From an uncultured Clostridia bacterium (lineage in GTDB: Bacteria > Bacillota > Clostridia > TANB77 > CAG-508), in the NCBI GenBank assembly GCA_947629765.1, contig CANREW010000001.1:29442-93441 (forward strand): a stretch of DNA of 64,000 nucleotides. Reading direction: 5' to 3'. Below the pieces are notes generated by a model that did no database searches, was not told the DNA's origin, and worked only from the letters and a program-made list of their open reading frames with translations. The translations under genes were made by a program, and so were the position numbers. Of the stretch, positions 2,275-57,652 are shown piece by piece. How positions within the stretch are numbered: the first letter of the stretch is position 1; the number at the start of each line of letters is the position of its first letter.

Positions 2275-2340
2275 ACAAGTAGCGAAAAAGGAAGAAAGCT
2301 AATATTTTAGCTATCTTCCTTTTTATTATAAATATAAAAT

Positions 2341-2476
2341 AGCAATAATATTTATTTTTCAAGAGGCTTGTCGTTTGCAGCCTACAAATTTTTAATTTTA
2401 ATGTAGGCTGCAAAAATCGCCCTTCGCTACGCTTCGGTTGATCGCTACGCGCCTCTTTTTAATAAATATTATTGCT
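2341..2476 (+). repeat. structured intergenic repeat, family A, copy 1 (nested hairpins)
   Basis: Near-identical to 5570..5708. Nested inverted repeats: aagaggc/gcctctt, tttgcagcctaca/tgtaggctgcaaa, and an outer stem aatatttattt/aaataaatatt extended by copy-specific complementary bases. Confidence 0.7.
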
Positions 2477-2580
2477 ATTTTAGAAGAATAACTATAATGC
2501 ATTTTATTCAAAAATACTTGAAAAAAATATATACTATGATATATAATAATTGCATAATATAAAGAAAGGATTTGTACTTT

Positions 2581-3303
2581 ATGACACCTCATAATGAAGC
2601 GAATATTGGGGATATTGCAGATACTGTATTAATGTCTGGTGATCCTCTTAGAGTTAAATATATTGCAGAGAATTTTTTGGAAGATTTTAAACTTGTAAAT
2701 ACCATTCGTGGTATGTATTGTTATACTGGTATATATAAAAACAAAAGAATATCAGTAATGGCTCATGGCATAGGAATTCCAAGTATGGGTATATATTCTT
2801 ATGAGTTATTTCATATATATGGTGTAAATACAATTATAAGAATGGGATCTTGTGGAGCTTTATCAGATAAGCTAGAACTATTTGATATAGTACTTGTAGA
2901 AAATGCATATACAGAAAGTAATTATGCTTTTAGCTTTGATAATAAGCCTTGTAATTTAGTACAAGCAGATAGAAAAATAAACAATATAATAGAAGAAACC
3001 TCAAAGCAAAAAGGTATACCTTGCAAAAAAGGAAATGTATTATGTAGTGATTGCTTTGATCCATACCTTCCTGATAAAGATGCAATAGTAAACCGTACAC
3101 CAAAAGACTTAAACTTAATCGCATCTGAAATGGAATCTTTTGCATTATTTTACAATGCAAAAAGAGAAAATAAAAAAGCAGTATGTATACTTACAGTTTC
3201 AGATGTACCAAAATCTAAAAAAGCAATAAGTGCCAAAGAAAGACAAAATTCAATGGATAATATGATAAAGATAGCATTAGATACAGCGATTAAAGTAAAA
3301 TAA
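2581..3303 (+). CDS. deoD: purine nucleoside phosphorylase, DeoD-type
   Basis: MTPHNEANIGDIADTVLMSGDPLRVKYIAENFLEDFKLVNTIRGMYCYTGIYKNKRISVMAHGIGIPSMGIYSYEL: PNP/UDP family, DeoD hallmark. RBS AAAGGA upstream of ATG 2581. Confidence 0.85.
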   Translation: MTPHNEANIGDIADTVLMSGDPLRVKYIAENFLEDFKLVNTIRGMYCYTGIYKNKRISVMAHGIGIPSMGIYSYELFHIYGVNTIIRMGSCGALSDKLELFDIVLVENAYTESNYAFSFDNKPCNLVQADRKINNIIEETSKQKGIPCKKGNVLCSDCFDPYLPDKDAIVNRTPKDLNLIASEMESFALFYNAKRENKKAVCILTVSDVPKSKKAISAKERQNSMDNMIKIALDTAIKVK

Positions 3304-51222: not shown

Positions 51223-51582
51223 ATGGATGAAGAAGTTTGTTTTATAGATGGTGATGGAAATAAAATTTCTTGTGAAGGTATATGTTCACATATTGGTTTG
51301 GCAAGAGCAATTTTGGAAAAGGACAAAAAACTTGACGAAGAATTCAAAAAAAGTGGTGTGCAAGATCCAGTAGATTTCTTTATATATAATAAAGGTTGGG
51401 CAAAAGTAACTTGCCAAAGCTATTATAAAAAATGTGTTTATTCATCATCTAGACTTAGTGAAAAACAAAGACAAATTCTATTATACTATAAACGTGCAGC
51501 AGGATATGAGATGGACGATTTAGATATGTTAGAATTACAACGAAAATACAAAAATGATGGAAAATGGAATACTGATAGATAA
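51223..51582 (+). CDS. hypothetical Cys-containing protein inserted between dnaK and dnaJ
   Basis: 119 aa: MDEEVCFIDGDGNKISCEGICSHIGLARAIL... A terminator hairpin (gaggttggaaattttactagtccaacctc) follows. Confidence 0.4.
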   Translation: MDEEVCFIDGDGNKISCEGICSHIGLARAILEKDKKLDEEFKKSGVQDPVDFFIYNKGWAKVTCQSYYKKCVYSSSRLSEKQRQILLYYKRAAGYEMDDLDMLELQRKYKNDGKWNTDR

Positions 51583-51685: not shown

Positions 51686-52825
51686 ATGGCTGAAAAAAGA
51701 GATTACTATGAAGTGCTTGGAGTAGAAAAGACAGCAACTGACGAAGAAATAAAAAAAGCATATAGAAGACTTGCAAAAAAATATCATCCAGATGCAAATC
51801 CTGACAATAAAAAAGAAGCAGAAGCTAAATTTAAGGAAATAAATGAAGCCTATGAGACTTTATCAGATAAACAAAAAAGATCTATGTATGATCAATTTGG
51901 AGCAAATGGTCCACAAGGCTTTGGTGGAGGAGCAGGAAATGGATATTATTCATATTCTACATCTGGTTTTGATGGATTTGATATAGATTTAGACGATATT
52001 GTATCTTCAATTTTTGGTGGAGGCAGAAGAAGAAACTCTAGGACACAAAACGGACCAAGCAAAGGTGCTGATTTAAGGCACGATATAGAAATTACATTTG
52101 AAGAATCTTATTTAGGTGTAAGAAAACAAATAAATATTTCTAGAGAAGATGTATGTGATGTCTGCCATGGTAGCGGTGCAAAACCAGGAAGTAAAGTAGA
52201 TACATGTTCAGTTTGTAACGGAACTGGACAGATAAGACAAGTGCAGACTACTTTATTTGGACAAATGCAAACATCTAGAACTTGTACAAATTGTGGTGGA
52301 ACTGGAAAAGTAATTCGTGAAGTTTGTGAAAAATGTAGAGGAAAAGGAAGAATAAAAAAACAGTCAAGAATCACAGTAAGTATACCAGCAGGAATTGACG
52401 ATGGACAGACAGTAGTTTTAAGAGGTGAAGGTGCACCAGGACAAAACGGTGGCCCAAAAGGTGATTTATATATAGTGGTACATATTAAACATCACCCTAT
52501 ATATATAAGAAAAGATGATCATATACTTTGTGATATTCCAGTAACTGTAACACAGGCAACCTTAGGTGCTGAACTAGAAATACCAATGGTAGATGGGACA
52601 AAAGAAAAATTTAAAATACCAGAAGGAACTCAAACAGGTACAAAGTTTAGAATAAAACAAAAAGGATTTAGTAGCATAAATAGAAATTATAGAGGCGACT
52701 TTATATTTACAGTTATTGTTCAAACTCCAAAAAGGCTTTCAAAAGAACAAAGAGATTTGTTTGAACAATTAGCAAAAACTATGAATGAACAACCACCTGT
52801 AAGAAGAAAAGGAATATTTGGATAA
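51686..52825 (+). CDS. dnaJ: molecular chaperone DnaJ
   Basis: J-domain (DYYEVLGV...KKYHPD), G/F region, four CxxCxGxG zinc-finger repeats. Confidence 0.9.
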
Positions 52826-52977
52826 AATATTACATTTATATTACAAATTAATTACTTCTATTGACTGAAGTAAAAAAATAGATTACAATAAATTTAAATT
52901 AACTTTTATGTTAAACAAAAGAACGGAAAACAAAGGAGAAAATGAATGACAATAAACGCTAGAAGCCTAGAGACTGT

Positions 52978-53000
52978 ACACACACACACACACACACACA
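52978..53000. repeat. dinucleotide simple-sequence repeat, (CA)n with about 11 units
   Basis: gtACACACACACACACACACACACAaatag, about 120 nt upstream of the ATG at 53120. A partially complementary TG/T tract (ttttgtgtgttttttt) lies at about 53066..53081. Confidence 0.85.
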
Positions 53001-53119
53001 AATAGTATATTAAAAGAAAGAGATAATATAAGGACACACAGGACTTATACTTTTTAGGGTATGAGTTTTGTGTGTTTTTTTGTTATATAAAAATATAAAG
53101 GAAAAGGAGAGAAAAACTT

Positions 53120-54589
53120 ATGAAGAAAAATAAAGGTATTACATTAATAGCATTGATTATAACAATAATAATCTTAATAATACTAACAGCAGTAACAATA
53201 AATAATGTAATAAGAACAGACCTAATAGGATTTGCAACAAAGGCAGTGGAAAATTATACAGATGTAGCAAAAGATGAGGCAGACAAAGTAGATGAGTTAG
53301 TAGGAATAACTGATAATTTAGGAGTAGGAAAAGATAGTATAGTAAAAGCAGGAGAGATAGTAACAGAGACTAAAAAAGATAATTATACAGATGTAACAGG
53401 AAGAGCAGCAACAATACCAGCAGGCTTTAAAGTATCAACAAAATCGTCAGAACAATATATAAAAGATGGACTAGTAATACAAGACAACGATGGCAACGAA
53501 TTTGTTTGGGTACCATGTTATTATGCAGATACTGAAAATACAAAACCAGATGGAACAGCTGAGGATGTACAACAATACAAAAAGCATACTTATGAGGATC
53601 AGACTGATACAGAATGTGTGACAGTAGAAAAAGGTGGTAAAGGATGGAAAACATTCTATTATACTTCTTTTAAAGATTGGTTAGATATAGCTACGCAGAA
53701 ACTAAATAATGGTGTAATAGAACCAGATAAGGACGCATATGGAAATAAAAGTGTAAGAGACTATGGAGGATTCTATATAGCAAGATATGAAGCTGGATGG
53801 GACGAAACGACAGTAGAAAACTTACAAGGAGGATCAACAGACTATATTAAAACGGGTTATGAAGAGGAAAAAACCAAAAGAAATATAACAACAAAAACTC
53901 CAGTAAGCAAACCGAATGTATTTAGTTGGAATTTTATAAGTCAACAAAATGCAAAAACAGTATCAGAGAATATGTATAAAGACAGTAGTTCAGTAGATAG
54001 TAAATTAGTAGATGGAACAGCATGGGATACAATAACAAACTGGATAGCAACTGATGGAGAGAAAATAGTAACAGAAAGTACATCATATGGAAACTATAAT
54101 GATACAAATAAATCCTATACAGGATGGTATGCAGAACATGTATGGTCTAGTCAAATTAAAGCTGCTGGTGGTGTAACGGGATGGCTATATGCGAGTAAGT
54201 TTAACAGTGGCTCAATCGACCTTCAATGGAAGAAATTAACAGTTGACCAATGGAATACAAAGAAGGCAGATATAGCTAATGCTAATGAAAGCACTGATAC
54301 AACTAATTATAACCTAGACACAAGAATAGAAATACCAACAGGAAGCTATGATGAATTCAAATTAAAGAATATATATGACTTAGCAGGAAATATGTGGGAA
54401 TGGACAACAGAAGTAGGCGATCATAAGGATAAAGTAGAAACCACGAACAGCGGTTCAATCGCTGTTTTCCGTGGCGGTTGCTTTAATTACTCTGGTACTG
54501 ATGGTCCACTTTGCTCTCGCCATGGTTACCATAGTTCTTCAACTATGGCTGTCGACATCGGGTTCCGTGTCGTGCTTTATGTAAAGTAG
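53120..54589 (+). CDS. prepilin-like N-terminal TM protein with C-terminal FGE-sulfatase (SUMF1/DUF323) domain
   Basis: N-terminus MKKNKGITLIALIITIIILIILTAV (class-III-signal-like, lacking Glu5). C-terminus ...VFRGGCFNYSGTDGPLCSRHGYHSSSTMAVDIGFRVVL matches the FGE-sulfatase RGGS-type and GFRxV motifs. The 3' portion is GC-richer than the rest. Confidence 0.5.
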   Translation: MKKNKGITLIALIITIIILIILTAVTINNVIRTDLIGFATKAVENYTDVAKDEADKVDELVGITDNLGVGKDSIVKAGEIVTETKKDNYTDVTGRAATIPAGFKVSTKSSEQYIKDGLVIQDNDGNEFVWVPCYYADTENTKPDGTAEDVQQYKKHTYEDQTDTECVTVEKGGKGWKTFYYTSFKDWLDIATQKLNNGVIEPDKDAYGNKSVRDYGGFYIARYEAGWDETTVENLQGGSTDYIKTGYEEEKTKRNITTKTPVSKPNVFSWNFISQQNAKTVSENMYKDSSSVDSKLVDGTAWDTITNWIATDGEKIVTESTSYGNYNDTNKSYTGWYAEHVWSSQIKAAGGVTGWLYASKFNSGSIDLQWKKLTVDQWNTKKADIANANESTDTTNYNLDTRIEIPTGSYDEFKLKNIYDLAGNMWEWTTEVGDHKDKVETTNSGSIAVFRGGCFNYSGTDGPLCSRHGYHSSSTMAVDIGFRVVLYVK

Positions 54590-54778
54590 ATGGCAAGAAG
54601 TAAAGAATTCGCATATATTTTGATAATTACAAAAAAGAGACACTGGGAATTATTCCAGTGCCTCTTTTAGCATTAAAATAAAATTTCAATAAAAATCAAT
54701 AAAAAAACTTGTAATTATTTTATTTATTGATATAATATTAAGGGTTAAGAAAATTTTAAAAGAAAAGAGGAAGATATA

Positions 54779-55944: not shown

Positions 55945-57652
55945 ATGATTAGCTTTAAAGAAGGTATAGCACAAGAAATAGCAAAAGCTACAGAATTGAA
56001 TTATGAAGAAATAATAATTGGAATAGAAACTCCAAAAGAAAAAGAACAAGGGGATTATGCTTTCCCTTGTTTTAGGCTTGCCAAAAGCTTAAAAAAGTCT
56101 CCACAAATTATTGCAGAAGAGATAAAACAAAAAATTGAGTTAGATAATGATTTAATTCAAAAGATGGAAGTTGTTGGCGGATATTTAAACTTTTTTGTAA
56201 AAAAAGAAACATTAGTAAAAACAGTTATAGACGAATTTCAAGAAAAAGATGATGACTATGGAAAATCTAATTTAGGTTCTGGAAAAAATATAATAGTTGA
56301 ATATTCGTCACCGAACATTGCAAAACCATTCCATATAGGACATTTAAGGACAACCTTAATAGGAAATGCGTTATACAATACATATAAATATTTAGGATAT
56401 AACACTATACGGAATTAACCATCTAGGAGATTATGGAACACAATTTGGAAAAATGATAGAAGGGTACAAGCTTTGGAGTAGTGAATATAAATTTGAAAAT
56501 CCTATTGAAGATTTGACAGATATATATGTAAGAATAAATGAACTTTGCAAACAAGATGAAAATGTACTTGAAAAATGTAGAGATAACTTTAAAAGACTAG
56601 AAGATAGAGAAGAGTATGAAGTAAACCTTTGGAATAAGTTAAAAGAACTTAGTTTGAAGGAATTTAACAAGATTTATGATTTACTAGATGTAAAATTTGA
56701 TTCATTAAATGGTGAAGCTTTTTATGCTGATAAATTACAAGAAGTTATAGATATATTGGAAAAAACTGGAAAACTTGTAGAATCAGATGGAGCAAAAATA
56801 ATTGACTTAGAAGATAAAGGTATGACACCATGTATAATTTGCAAATCAAATGGTTCTAGCATATATGCAACTCGTGACCTAGCTGCAATACTTTATAGAG
56901 CAAGAACTTACGACTTTGATAAATGTTTATACGTAGTTGCTTATGAACAAAATTTACATTTTAAGCAGATATTTGAAGTTGCAAAATTACTTGGATTAGA
57001 CCAAAAGTATATAGATGGACTAGAACATGTTTCTTATGGTATGGTGCATTTAAAATCTGGTAAAATGTCAACTCGTGAGGGTAATGTAATAAAAGTTGAA
57101 GACTTACTAAAAGAAGCAATTGAAAGAGCAGGAAAAATATTAGAAGAAAAAAATCCAAATATTGAAAACAAAGAAGATATTGCACAAAAAGTAGGCATTG
57201 GAGCTATTATATTTAATGATTTATCAAATAGTAGAATAAAGGATGAGACATTTGACTGGGATACTATTTTAAATTTCCAAGGAGAGACAGGACCATATAT
57301 ACAATATATGTATGTGAGAACAAAAAGCGTTCTTGATGGAGCAAATAATGAAATAGATAGTAACGAAATTGATATAAATAATTTACTAGACGAAGAGGCA
57401 ATAGATGTTATAAAAAATATATATAATTTCGAAGATGTTCTTATAAGTGTTACAGAAAAGAATGAACCATATTTACTTAGTAAATATTTAATAGATCTTT
57501 CAAAAAATTATAGTGCTTTTTATAACAATCATAAGATCTTAGTAGAAGATAAAAAAATAGCAAATAGTAGATTATATTTAACATACATGACAAATAAAAT
57601 ATTGGAGAAAGGTGCTAGAATACTAGGCATTAAGATGCCAGATAAAATGTAA
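55945..57652 (+). pseudogene. argS: arginine--tRNA ligase, interrupted by a 1-nt C insertion near 56410
   Basis: ...SSPNIAKPFHIGHLRTTLIGNALYNTYKYLGYNTI then a stop as written. Removing the C in ata C gga att gives ...[26 protein letters not shown]..., continuous with ORF 56453..57652. Confidence 0.85.

Follow-up and report, generated by a model that had tools for sequence, protein, structure and literature searches.

The window analysed here is a stretch of 64,000 nucleotides (64 kb, 29% G+C) from an uncultured Clostridia bacterium, and our subject is a simple sequence repeat (SSR), the dinucleotide tract (AC)11, which lies between dnaJ, ending at 52825, and a gene for a protein of 489 aa that is in turn followed by pfk. 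We consider it fairly likely that slipped-strand changes in this tract constitute a phase switch, one that would act on the downstream gene through attenuation of transcription, and the gene itself belongs, as judged from several lines of comparison, to a family of targets of diversity-generating retroelements (DGRs). The features on which the argument rests are the following; other loci compared with the window are given as L numbers.

52861..52889, + strand: sigma-70-like promoter TTGACT-17-TACAAT (10/12 consensus matches), with a predicted leader start near 52896
52932..52939, + strand: ribosome-binding site AAAGGAGA of the leader open reading frame (ORF), 7 nt 5' of ATG 52946 (read from the sequence)
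52946..53005, + strand: leader ORF in its present phase, MTINARSLETV(HT)4HK and stop, 19 codons (ORF reading; TAG stop at 53003-53005)
52964..52977, + strand: left-flank motif AGCCTAGAGACTGT (family consensus AGCCTTGAGGCTGT)
52978..52999, + strand: (AC)11 simple sequence repeat, variable element of the proposed switch (Tandem Repeats Finder, TRF; run scan; allele comparison)
53031..53081, + strand: intrinsic terminator, a hairpin of ~22 bp with 5' arm GGACACACAGGACTTATAC and 3' arm GTATGAGTTTTGTGTGTT, then T7 (terminator scan, fold)
53106..53111, + strand: ribosome-binding site GGAGAG of the main gene (read from the sequence)
53120..54589, + strand: main gene, for a DGR-target-family protein with a pilin-like N-terminal helix, a beta-rich middle and a C-type-lectin domain of the formylglycine-generating enzyme (FGE) type (Pfam, homologues, AlphaFold2)
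53120..53194, + strand: class-III (prepilin-like) signal and hydrophobic helix MKKNKG/ITLIALIITIIILIILTAV, with Ala in place of Glu at +5 (N_methyl, E = 0.009; conservation; model)
54458..54576, + strand: DGR variable region (VR), terminating in the shared element GGGTTCCGTGTCGTGCT (adenine deficit; comparison with template repeats, TRs)

The repeat, its leader and the reading frames

The initial annotation of this DNA had described a perfect AC repeat about 120 nt before a start codon, and both the position and the description are correct. Namely, TRF reports 52978-53000 as a period-2 repeat of 11.5 copies with 100% matches, the tract is perfect (23 nt if the trailing A is counted in), and the distance from its end to ATG 53120 is 120 nt. 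The rarity ascribed to such repeats is equally well founded here, as (AC)11 is the sole dinucleotide run of at least 6 units in the window and dinucleotide-preserving shuffles of it give an expectation of 0.00 for a 16-nt AC pattern. What is more, the tract behaves as a hypermutable repeat, in keeping with the slipped-strand character proposed for it. Its length is not invariant: in a comparison between strains and assemblies, one and the same locus carries 11 units in the window, 10 in L001, which comes from another metagenome, and 8 in L082, from a third sample, with proteins that are at least 99% identical. In particular, L001 is 99.2% identical to the window across 3.3 kb and (AC)10 is its only indel, while L082 is 98.8% identical to the window.

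The tract begins at codon 11 of the short leader ORF that starts at ATG 52946, and a tract is likewise found inside a leader ORF in 19 family leaders and in 78 metagenome leaders (72 of the latter with a ribosome-binding site); a GGAG-type site is present in every homologous leader. Downstream of the tract comes the terminator, whose hairpin proper spans 53031-53078, with the 5' arm at 53031-53050, and whose T-run ends at 53081, 38 nt before the ATG of the main gene. The 230-nt leader folds at -41 kcal/mol (z = -5.3 versus shuffles), and the hairpin of this class, which we call class 1, is kept in 11 loci with compensatory double changes in 4 pairs. On the grounds of the leader-fold z-score, the U7 tail and the compensatory pairs, the terminator is real. 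The TG-rich tract TTTTGTGTGTTTTTTT at 53066-53081, which the initial annotation had located correctly and had paired with the AC tract, pairs instead with GGACACACAGGACTTATAC and is the 3' arm of this hairpin. A role of the AC tract as an antiterminator partner of the UG-rich arm was also considered and rejected, given that the tract stays essentially unpaired in the minimum-free-energy fold (no more than a single 5-bp helix), that the hairpin owns a perfect 5' arm, and that other leader classes are without such complementarity. A scan of 52700-53300 against Rfam at a permissive threshold gave sub-threshold chance matches only and no known RNA family.

As regards transcription, the sole promoter-like site, at 52861-52889, lies about 90 nt 5' of the tract and none spans it; the same element is found 5' of the related cassettes L012 and L003, and no promoter-like site was found in the window between the terminator and the ATG of the main gene. 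It had been suggested that the repeat might lie between -35 and -10 and act through promoter spacing, and this mechanism finds no support, the tract being situated within the leader ORF rather than in a promoter spacer. In a more general form, one could suppose that the repeat alters promoter spacing or strength, or that it modulates transcription as non-B DNA (Z-DNA for AC/GT, H-DNA for AG/CT). Tracts of both AC and AG are able to form non-B DNA, and this one does lie upstream of a gene. However, apart from the placement of the promoter, the tract is always found in an ORF with a ribosome-binding site, on the sense strand and with a terminator after it, and the frame-dependent geometry, to which we now turn, would be left unexplained, so that we hold this explanation to be very improbable.

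The geometry itself can be read off directly. With 11 or 8 units, the leader ORF stops 27 nt before the hairpin, and with 10 units it stops 19 nt before it; with 9 or 12 units, it continues to a TAG inside the hairpin loop. The same logic recurs across the gene family. In a survey of 80 homologous loci (499 kb), we recognised 61 family genes and scored (AC) or (AG) runs of at least 6 units no more than 800 nt upstream of them; such runs precede 20 of the 61 genes. All 24 runs of this kind in the whole 499 kb are on the sense strand and beside family genes, and the repeat is thus, by this survey, conserved in the gene family. In every case the tract is reached after about 10 codons of a short ORF that has a ribosome-binding site, and the leader classes have four unrelated hairpin sequences among them. 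Of the 17 family leaders with a terminator that we analysed, 16 have exactly one frame whose stop falls in the hairpin loop (+17 to +25 nt) or past it, the two remaining frames ending 4-145 nt short of the hairpin. L057 departs from this, its sole hairpin being negligible at -0.2 kcal/mol, and it groups instead with L023 and L059. In all three, one of the frames joins the leader directly to the main ORF, which is without a ribosome-binding site of its own, and their design is, from the reading frames, that of a classical translational switch.

A scan of metagenomes with a pattern consisting of the left flank followed by (AC)7 matched at least 120 contigs, and the 80 loci that we analysed hold 81 tracts, with repeat numbers from 7 to 25. 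Among the 29 of these independent loci with a strong hairpin, exactly one frame reaches the hairpin in 20, and at least one frame is open to it in 25, as compared to 13.1 expected from spacer shuffles. When a single locus is taken for each hairpin class, 16 of 20 are open versus 7.9 expected.

The protein family and its diversification

The 489-aa protein begins MKKNKGITLIALIITIIILIIL. The FGE/SUMF1-type domain that had been assigned to its C-terminus is borne out by the domain search proposed for it (PF03781): the Pfam FGE-sulfatase family matches residues 355-485 with E = 3e-9, above the curated cut-off. The AlphaFold2 model (predicted local distance difference test score, pLDDT, 88.8) has as its best structural matches in the PDB the DGR variable proteins TaqVP, TvpA and Mtd, followed by FGE and PvdO. 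A sequence search of the PDB returned EgtB only, at E = 0.11, a PHROGs search with the target protein gave no match, and look-ups of the exact proteins P0121 and P0007 gave no record. The catalytic cysteine pair of formylglycine-generating enzyme is not found: no cysteine in the C-terminal domain is conserved among 62 homologues, and C454 and C465 fall within the variable region. For this reason, the protein is, as far as its residues tell, a binding module and not an enzyme. The view that it represents an unusual, non-standard fusion has to be dropped, since the family has more than 5,000 matches (5,133 database homologues of the protein) and consists of DGR targets of the TvpA/FGE-type C-type-lectin kind. 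Metagenome-assembled genomes (MAGs) of uncultured gut Clostridia in GTDB carry it in multiple copies, with at least 12 in one rabbit-gut MAG.

The pilin-like N-terminus seen by the initial annotation stands in part. The hydrophobic helix is there (the model has helices at residues 5-30 and 35-65), as is the conserved KG/ITLIAL, and among the 62 homologues G6, I7, T8, L9 and L12 are invariant and A11 is at least 90% conserved. That said, the Pfam N_methyl match (residues 1-25, E = 0.009) is below cut-off, and the Glu expected at mature position +5 is replaced by Ala11 throughout the family. Like type IV pilins and pseudopilins (PF07963), the protein has a short basic leader, Gly at -1, and a hydrophobic helix of ~20 residues that runs into a long alpha-1 and then a globular domain; unlike type IV pilins, it has Ala for Glu at +5, a sub-threshold Pfam score and a lectin-type globular part of 400 aa. 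No pilus assembly genes were seen near the window gene. A Peptidase_A24 gene (E = 1e-15) lies outside the window, 2 kb downstream of a same-species paralogue on L087 and L088. Going by these residues, the N-terminus would work like a pilin-type anchor, although we do not class the protein as a type IV pilin. The idea that the gene product is a surface protein is plausible, and we infer that the protein would be displayed on the cell surface, the N-terminal helix of each family member serving to hold it on a membrane or filament.

The GC-rich codon usage that had been pointed out at the 3' end of the gene is real, but it is more properly an adenine deficit (18% A in the last ~120 nt versus ~45% elsewhere in the gene), which is the signature of a DGR variable region. 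Between the window VR and the TR of L005, 17 of 31 TR-adenine positions differ versus 5 of 87 others, with an additional 3-nt gap (Fisher p = 2e-8). The VR of L005 differs from its own TR at 20 of 33 adenines and at 0 of 88 other positions, and among three same-species VRs the variable columns fall at 22 of 31 TR adenines versus 11 of 87 others (p = 3e-9). The shared 3' element GGGTTCCGTGTCGTGCT, which is similar to an initiation of mutagenic homing (IMH) element, ends the window VR at 54576 as well as the TRs of L005 and L007. In both of these loci the family gene is followed by Avd, a reverse transcriptase (RT) with a YMDD motif and the template repeat (Pfam bAvd and RVT_1), and PHROGs names the first gene after the family gene 'Avd protein of DGR'. 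The order target-Avd-RT-TR is found in L005, L007, L026, L029, L033, L038, L061 and L068, with Avd at the truncated end of L044; in all, Avd or Avd and RT lie beside paralogues in 9 related loci. By these marks, the family is one of DGR target proteins.

FGE-type targets make up the largest DGR target class (Wu et al. 2018, PMC5758913), and the present family is like Treponema denticola TvpA (PDB 2Y3C; category b, PMC5758913) in having a C-terminal FGE-sulfatase/C-type-lectin (CLec) domain with the VR in the last ~40 codons. It also shares with DGRs of the TvpA class the adenine-specific differences between VR and TR, the cassettes of Avd, RT and TR, and the several remote targets per genome. 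In contrast to that class, the N-terminus is a prepilin-like helix and not a lipoprotein signal, many copies stand behind the putative SSR switch, and the window copy is without an adjacent cassette and matches the nearest TR imperfectly. The at least 12 copies in one MAG also compare with a maximum of 7 non-adjacent targets in the survey of Wu et al. 2018 (PMC5758913), a paper that makes no mention of pilin-like N-termini or repeat switches. In the literature that we searched, no paper connects DGRs with slipped-strand repeats.

Within the 64-kb window there is no TR, RT or Avd (tblastn for RT and Avd), and the window copy would therefore be a remote DGR target, possibly one that is no longer active. 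The MAG of L005 (GCA_947629835.1) encodes the exact PFK protein of the window and has ~95% DNA identity to it, which makes it the nearest available genome, a sister lineage. A search for a cognate TR through RT homologues gave 2,532 RT matches, and the one cassette examined (L090-L094) was from another species. Two side observations concern the cassettes themselves. In L005 (4084-5089), the DGR RT is split into two ORFs of 192 and 136 aa, yet the adjacent VR is perfectly adenine-only in its differences from the TR. In L090-L093 (~2336-2872, minus strand), a 133-aa ORF consisting of MutS domain I alone stands beside a DGR cassette (bAvd, RT, TR) in several samples, and a truncated mismatch-repair protein is notable in a clade relying on repeat slippage.

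The proposed attenuation switch and its rivals

How might the repeat control the gene? Judging from the sequence, we think it rather probable that (AC)n, changing its length by strand slippage, serves as a phase switch that works by leader-peptide-dependent transcription attenuation. Namely, a transcript would begin at the promoter-like site near 52861-52889, or would arrive by read-through from dnaJ, and the short leader ORF bearing the repeat (ATG 52946) would be transcribed next. A strong intrinsic terminator (53031-53081) would then be met, with some 40 nt still to go to the main gene. Two phases out of three, among them those with 11, 10 and 8 units, have the leader stop 19-27 nt 5' of the hairpin, which would allow the terminator to form and the gene would be off or low. 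In the third phase (9, 12, 15 units and so on), a ribosome would cross the 5' arm to reach the stop in the loop, so that the hairpin would be blocked, termination relieved and the gene read. Each family copy would switch randomly and independently of the others, and a retroelement elsewhere in the genome could rewrite its ligand-binding tip.

A close precedent exists in Streptococcus gallolyticus, where at pil1/pil3 GCAGA repeats set the length of a leader ORF and the downstream terminator is the switch (Danne et al. 2014, PMC3894217). There, a stop at least 28 nt before the hairpin gives a low state, while a stop within or after it gives a high state, in which the ribosome keeps the hairpin from folding and transcription goes on into the pilus genes (PMC3894217). 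The window resembles this system in having a repeat in a short leader ORF, an intrinsic terminator before the gene and a stop whose position would set the state, with a surface appendage protein as the putative product, a Gram-positive gut bacterium as the host, and a low-state distance of 27 nt versus at least 28 nt. It differs in the repeat unit, a dinucleotide (AC)n/(AG)n rather than the pentanucleotide GCAGA, and in that modules of the window type are modular and multi-copy (at least 9 per genome), share a conserved flank, and are found with many gene types, in phages and with DGR targets. Moreover, the pil1/pil3 switch has been shown by experiment, whereas that of the window is predicted here from sequence. 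A full-text literature search gave no second example of a leader-ORF repeat combined with a terminator.

The opa genes of Neisseria (CTCTT) and lic1 of Haemophilus (CAAT) are SSR contingency loci with repeats in the 5' coding region. L023, L057 and L059 use exactly this translational design, and the family as a whole is like such loci in being a multi-copy set of putative surface proteins whose members would switch independently by slipped-strand repeat change. It is unlike them in that the window repeat lies in a separate leader ORF tied to a terminator, and in that long dinucleotide units are unusual for bacterial contingency loci. The classical SSR contingency loci are covered in a review (PMC11868660). 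SSR leader attenuation and DGR target families are both known kinds; the system proposed here would combine the two, and its modular, widely distributed form is apparently undescribed.

It should be noted that a number of points weigh against the attenuation switch. First, all three alleles at the window locus fall in predicted OFF phases, and the ON state at this locus is consequently one that we infer. Second, the ON fraction across loci is about 1/3, as expected for random phase, and gives no sign of selection for a particular state. Third, for one locus by itself, to have one of three frames open is statistically nothing out of the ordinary (about 0.4-0.55 by shuffling), and the argument thus rests on consistency across the leader classes. 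Fourth, some class-2 paralogues with long spacers have a promoter between the leader terminator and the gene, perfect in L014 (12/12; TTGACA-17-TATAAT at 2889-2917) and with 10/12 matches in L008 (2867-2894). These genes may not depend on read-through, and some family copies may therefore be transcribed independently of the switch. Fifth, ribosome-mediated antitermination depends on translation being closely coupled to transcription, and this is not so in all Firmicutes. Finally, as regards diversification, residues 450-489 do not differ among the window protein, P0001, P0121 and P0122, which means that the VR is the same in four strains. It also has 5 non-adenine mismatches and the 3-nt gap relative to the nearest TR, and the window copy may for these reasons no longer be diversified.

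As to the states of other copies, L083, a same-species paralogue with (AC)8, has the long frame and is predicted to be ON while the window copy is predicted to be OFF. A 185-aa signal-peptidase-like gene from the metagenome scan, found in seven samples, has n = 9, 11, 12, 13, 15, 15 and 15, which places 5 of the 7 in the ON frame. The notion that one copy is ON at a time in each MAG was examined and is not supported, about 1/3 being ON as under random phase.

The flank of the repeat bears on a second reading of the leader. The motif AGCCTAGAGACTGT is unique in the window, with a chance expectation of 0.04 matches, and the consensus AGCCTTGAGGCTGT borders both AC and AG tracts in loci picked by protein homology and not by the motif. 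In 62 leaders that have a ribosome-binding site its translation is S-L-E-A-V, in another 10 it is K-A-L-R-L-Y, and the use of two reading frames implies that it is conserved as DNA or RNA and not as peptide. We accordingly set aside a conserved leader N-terminus A-R-S-L-E-A-V, for which the same nucleotides give K-A-L-R-L-Y elsewhere. Could the leader ORF, the repeat and the terminator nevertheless constitute a self-contained, phase-variable gene for a small peptide (35-45 aa or more in the long frame), with the hairpin as its own terminator and the downstream gene independent of it? The long-frame peptides are indeed alike within a class, and the promoters that L014 and L008 have between hairpin and main gene are good ones. 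However, the peptides are wholly different between classes, and the two-frame reading of the flank argues against selection at the peptide level. The leader frame fuses to the downstream protein in L023, L057, L059 and several metagenome loci, the module is found before many unrelated genes and always on the same strand, and the window gene is without a promoter-like site of its own. We regard a separate peptide gene as unlikely. It may be added that AGCCTTGAGGCTGT, which stands immediately 5' of the (AC)n/(AG)n tracts (L095-L174, L215-L239 and the window), is conserved across hosts and phages and holds an inverted repeat, AGCC-nnnn-GGCU.

Alternatively, the tract could be a decaying or neutral relic, hypermutable but without a role in control, and the gene a silent, no-longer-diversified copy in a recently inserted cassette. 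The OFF phases of all three alleles are what one would expect of such a relic, and so are the VR shared by four strains with its non-adenine mismatches and gap, a degraded 3' arm of the hairpin in L082 (-18 versus -27 kcal/mol), and the absence of the cassette from sister lineages. On the other hand, long repeats without selection usually shorten or gain interruptions, whereas this tract is long and perfect. What is more, the leader ORF, its ribosome-binding site and the long frame are intact, as is the 489-codon main ORF in all strains. We assign the relic a low probability and, of the explanations considered, hold the attenuation switch to be the likeliest for the window.

The module in other genomes and the cassette in the window

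The repeat leader is not confined to the family studied here. In the metagenome loci, the downstream genes include pilin-like proteins with other C-termini and membrane proteins fused in frame to the leader. In L096, L097, L145 and L158, an AC-repeat leader precedes genes for a type I restriction-modification (R-M) specificity subunit of HsdS-like kind and for DPPY DNA methyltransferases, and these loci are candidate phase-variable restriction-modification systems (phasevarions) of uncultured gut Clostridia. In L101, L125, L139 and L170, the module stands before phage tail-collar or tail-fibre-like genes, and the same pattern occurs on 25 IMG/VR viral contigs (L215-L239); all of these are candidate contingency loci in phages or prophages of such hosts. 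From these occurrences one may sketch, tentatively and as something we rate at a little under an even chance, a portable switch common to the clade of uncultured gut Clostridia and their phages. It would consist of a ribosome-binding site, an ATG, about 10 codons, AGCCTTGAGGCTGT, (AC)n or (AG)n and usually a terminator, and it would gate genes for surface proteins, R-M specificity and tail-fibre-like proteins. In the family studied, it would add combinatorial on/off switching to DGR hypermutation, and the flank may be a cis-element for a dedicated factor or a DNA structure that promotes or tunes slippage. In the literature searched, no description of the (AC)n/(AG)n module was found.

Several observations concern individual members of the family. 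L012 has three cassettes in tandem. GC-rich palindromes (ATGTAGGGGCGACCATCGGTCGCCCGAG) are repeated around the leaders of L008, L009, L011 and L013, in genomes that are otherwise AT-rich, and they look like repetitive extragenic palindromic (REP) elements or miniature inverted-repeat transposable elements (MITEs). In L030 and L031, the (AC) tract is followed on its 3' side by a degenerate GGAGAGAG and then CAGTAATTTAAATAAA, similar to the (AG)n CCGTAATTTAAATAAA of L028, and an AC module seems to have been set before a decayed AG module. Copies without a repeat leader (L085/L086, 2081-2347; L007, 1903-2247) have a divergent gene for an XRE/HTH_3-type regulator upstream, which suggests a second, conventional mode of control for them. 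A same-species paralogue in L087-L089 (4499-5960) lacks the repeat and has a divergent HTH_26 gene on its upstream side; a frameshift splits it into 171 and 319 aa, alike on four contigs from different samples.

Back in the window, two further features concern the unit that carries repeat and gene.

52829..54632, + strand: whole cassette (promoter, SSR leader, terminator, gene), a presence/absence polymorphism of ~1.8 kb between dnaJ and pfk (comparison with L241)
54633..54668, no strand assigned: hairpin with flanking A/T runs 3' of the gene, resembling the dnaJ-terminator hairpin of L241

L241, from a related lineage, joins window positions 52827 and 54674 through an unrelated 272-nt spacer and is without the cassette. 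In it, a hairpin (AAAAGAGACACTAG...) comes directly after dnaJ, followed by the spacer and then pfk. L240, from the same MAG as L005, shares the spacer sequence 5' of pfk, its contig beginning inside the spacer. By its likeness to the L241 hairpin, that at 54633-54668 probably once terminated dnaJ and was moved to its present place when the cassette was inserted. On the other side, 25 of the 26 mismatches between the window and L001 sit in 180 nt of the 3' part of dnaJ (52434-52613 in the window, 1-180 in L001), and the next 3.1 kb hold one base difference and the repeat indel; this concentration suggests a recombination boundary immediately 5' of the cassette.

Two neighbouring genes also call for comment. 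At 55945-57652, argS is in two ORFs (157 and 399 aa) with a +1 frameshift near 56405-56418, one frame ending in GYNTIRN and a stop and the next continuing with INHLGDYGTQFGK. The same 157-aa call is made in L082, L240 and L242, from other samples, and its recurrence means that the split either exists in nature, as a programmed frameshift or because this essential gene is a pseudogene, or is a systematic error common to all of them. Recoding of TGA was rejected as the cause, given the +1 frameshift; TGA does terminate a few long ORFs. At 51223-51582, a 119-aa ORF without a Pfam match lies between dnaK and dnaJ, within this operon an unusual spot for an extra gene.

Phase variation and DGR hypermutation are the two main bacterial routes by which surface proteins are diversified while the rest of the genome stays unchanged, and both appear to act here on one multi-copy family in abundant, uncultured gut Clostridia with small genomes. 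In the literature searched, switching by a leader peptide and a terminator under the control of an SSR has so far been reported in Streptococcus gallolyticus only. If true, the case of the window would make this form of switching widespread and modular, including R-M and phage tail-fibre-like genes. In practical terms, the module repeats break short-read assemblies and mislead gene callers, while the simple signature of the module means that contingency genes can be found in metagenomes by pattern search. Finally, the module predicts heterogeneity at the level of strains, which would be directly measurable by long-read metagenomics.

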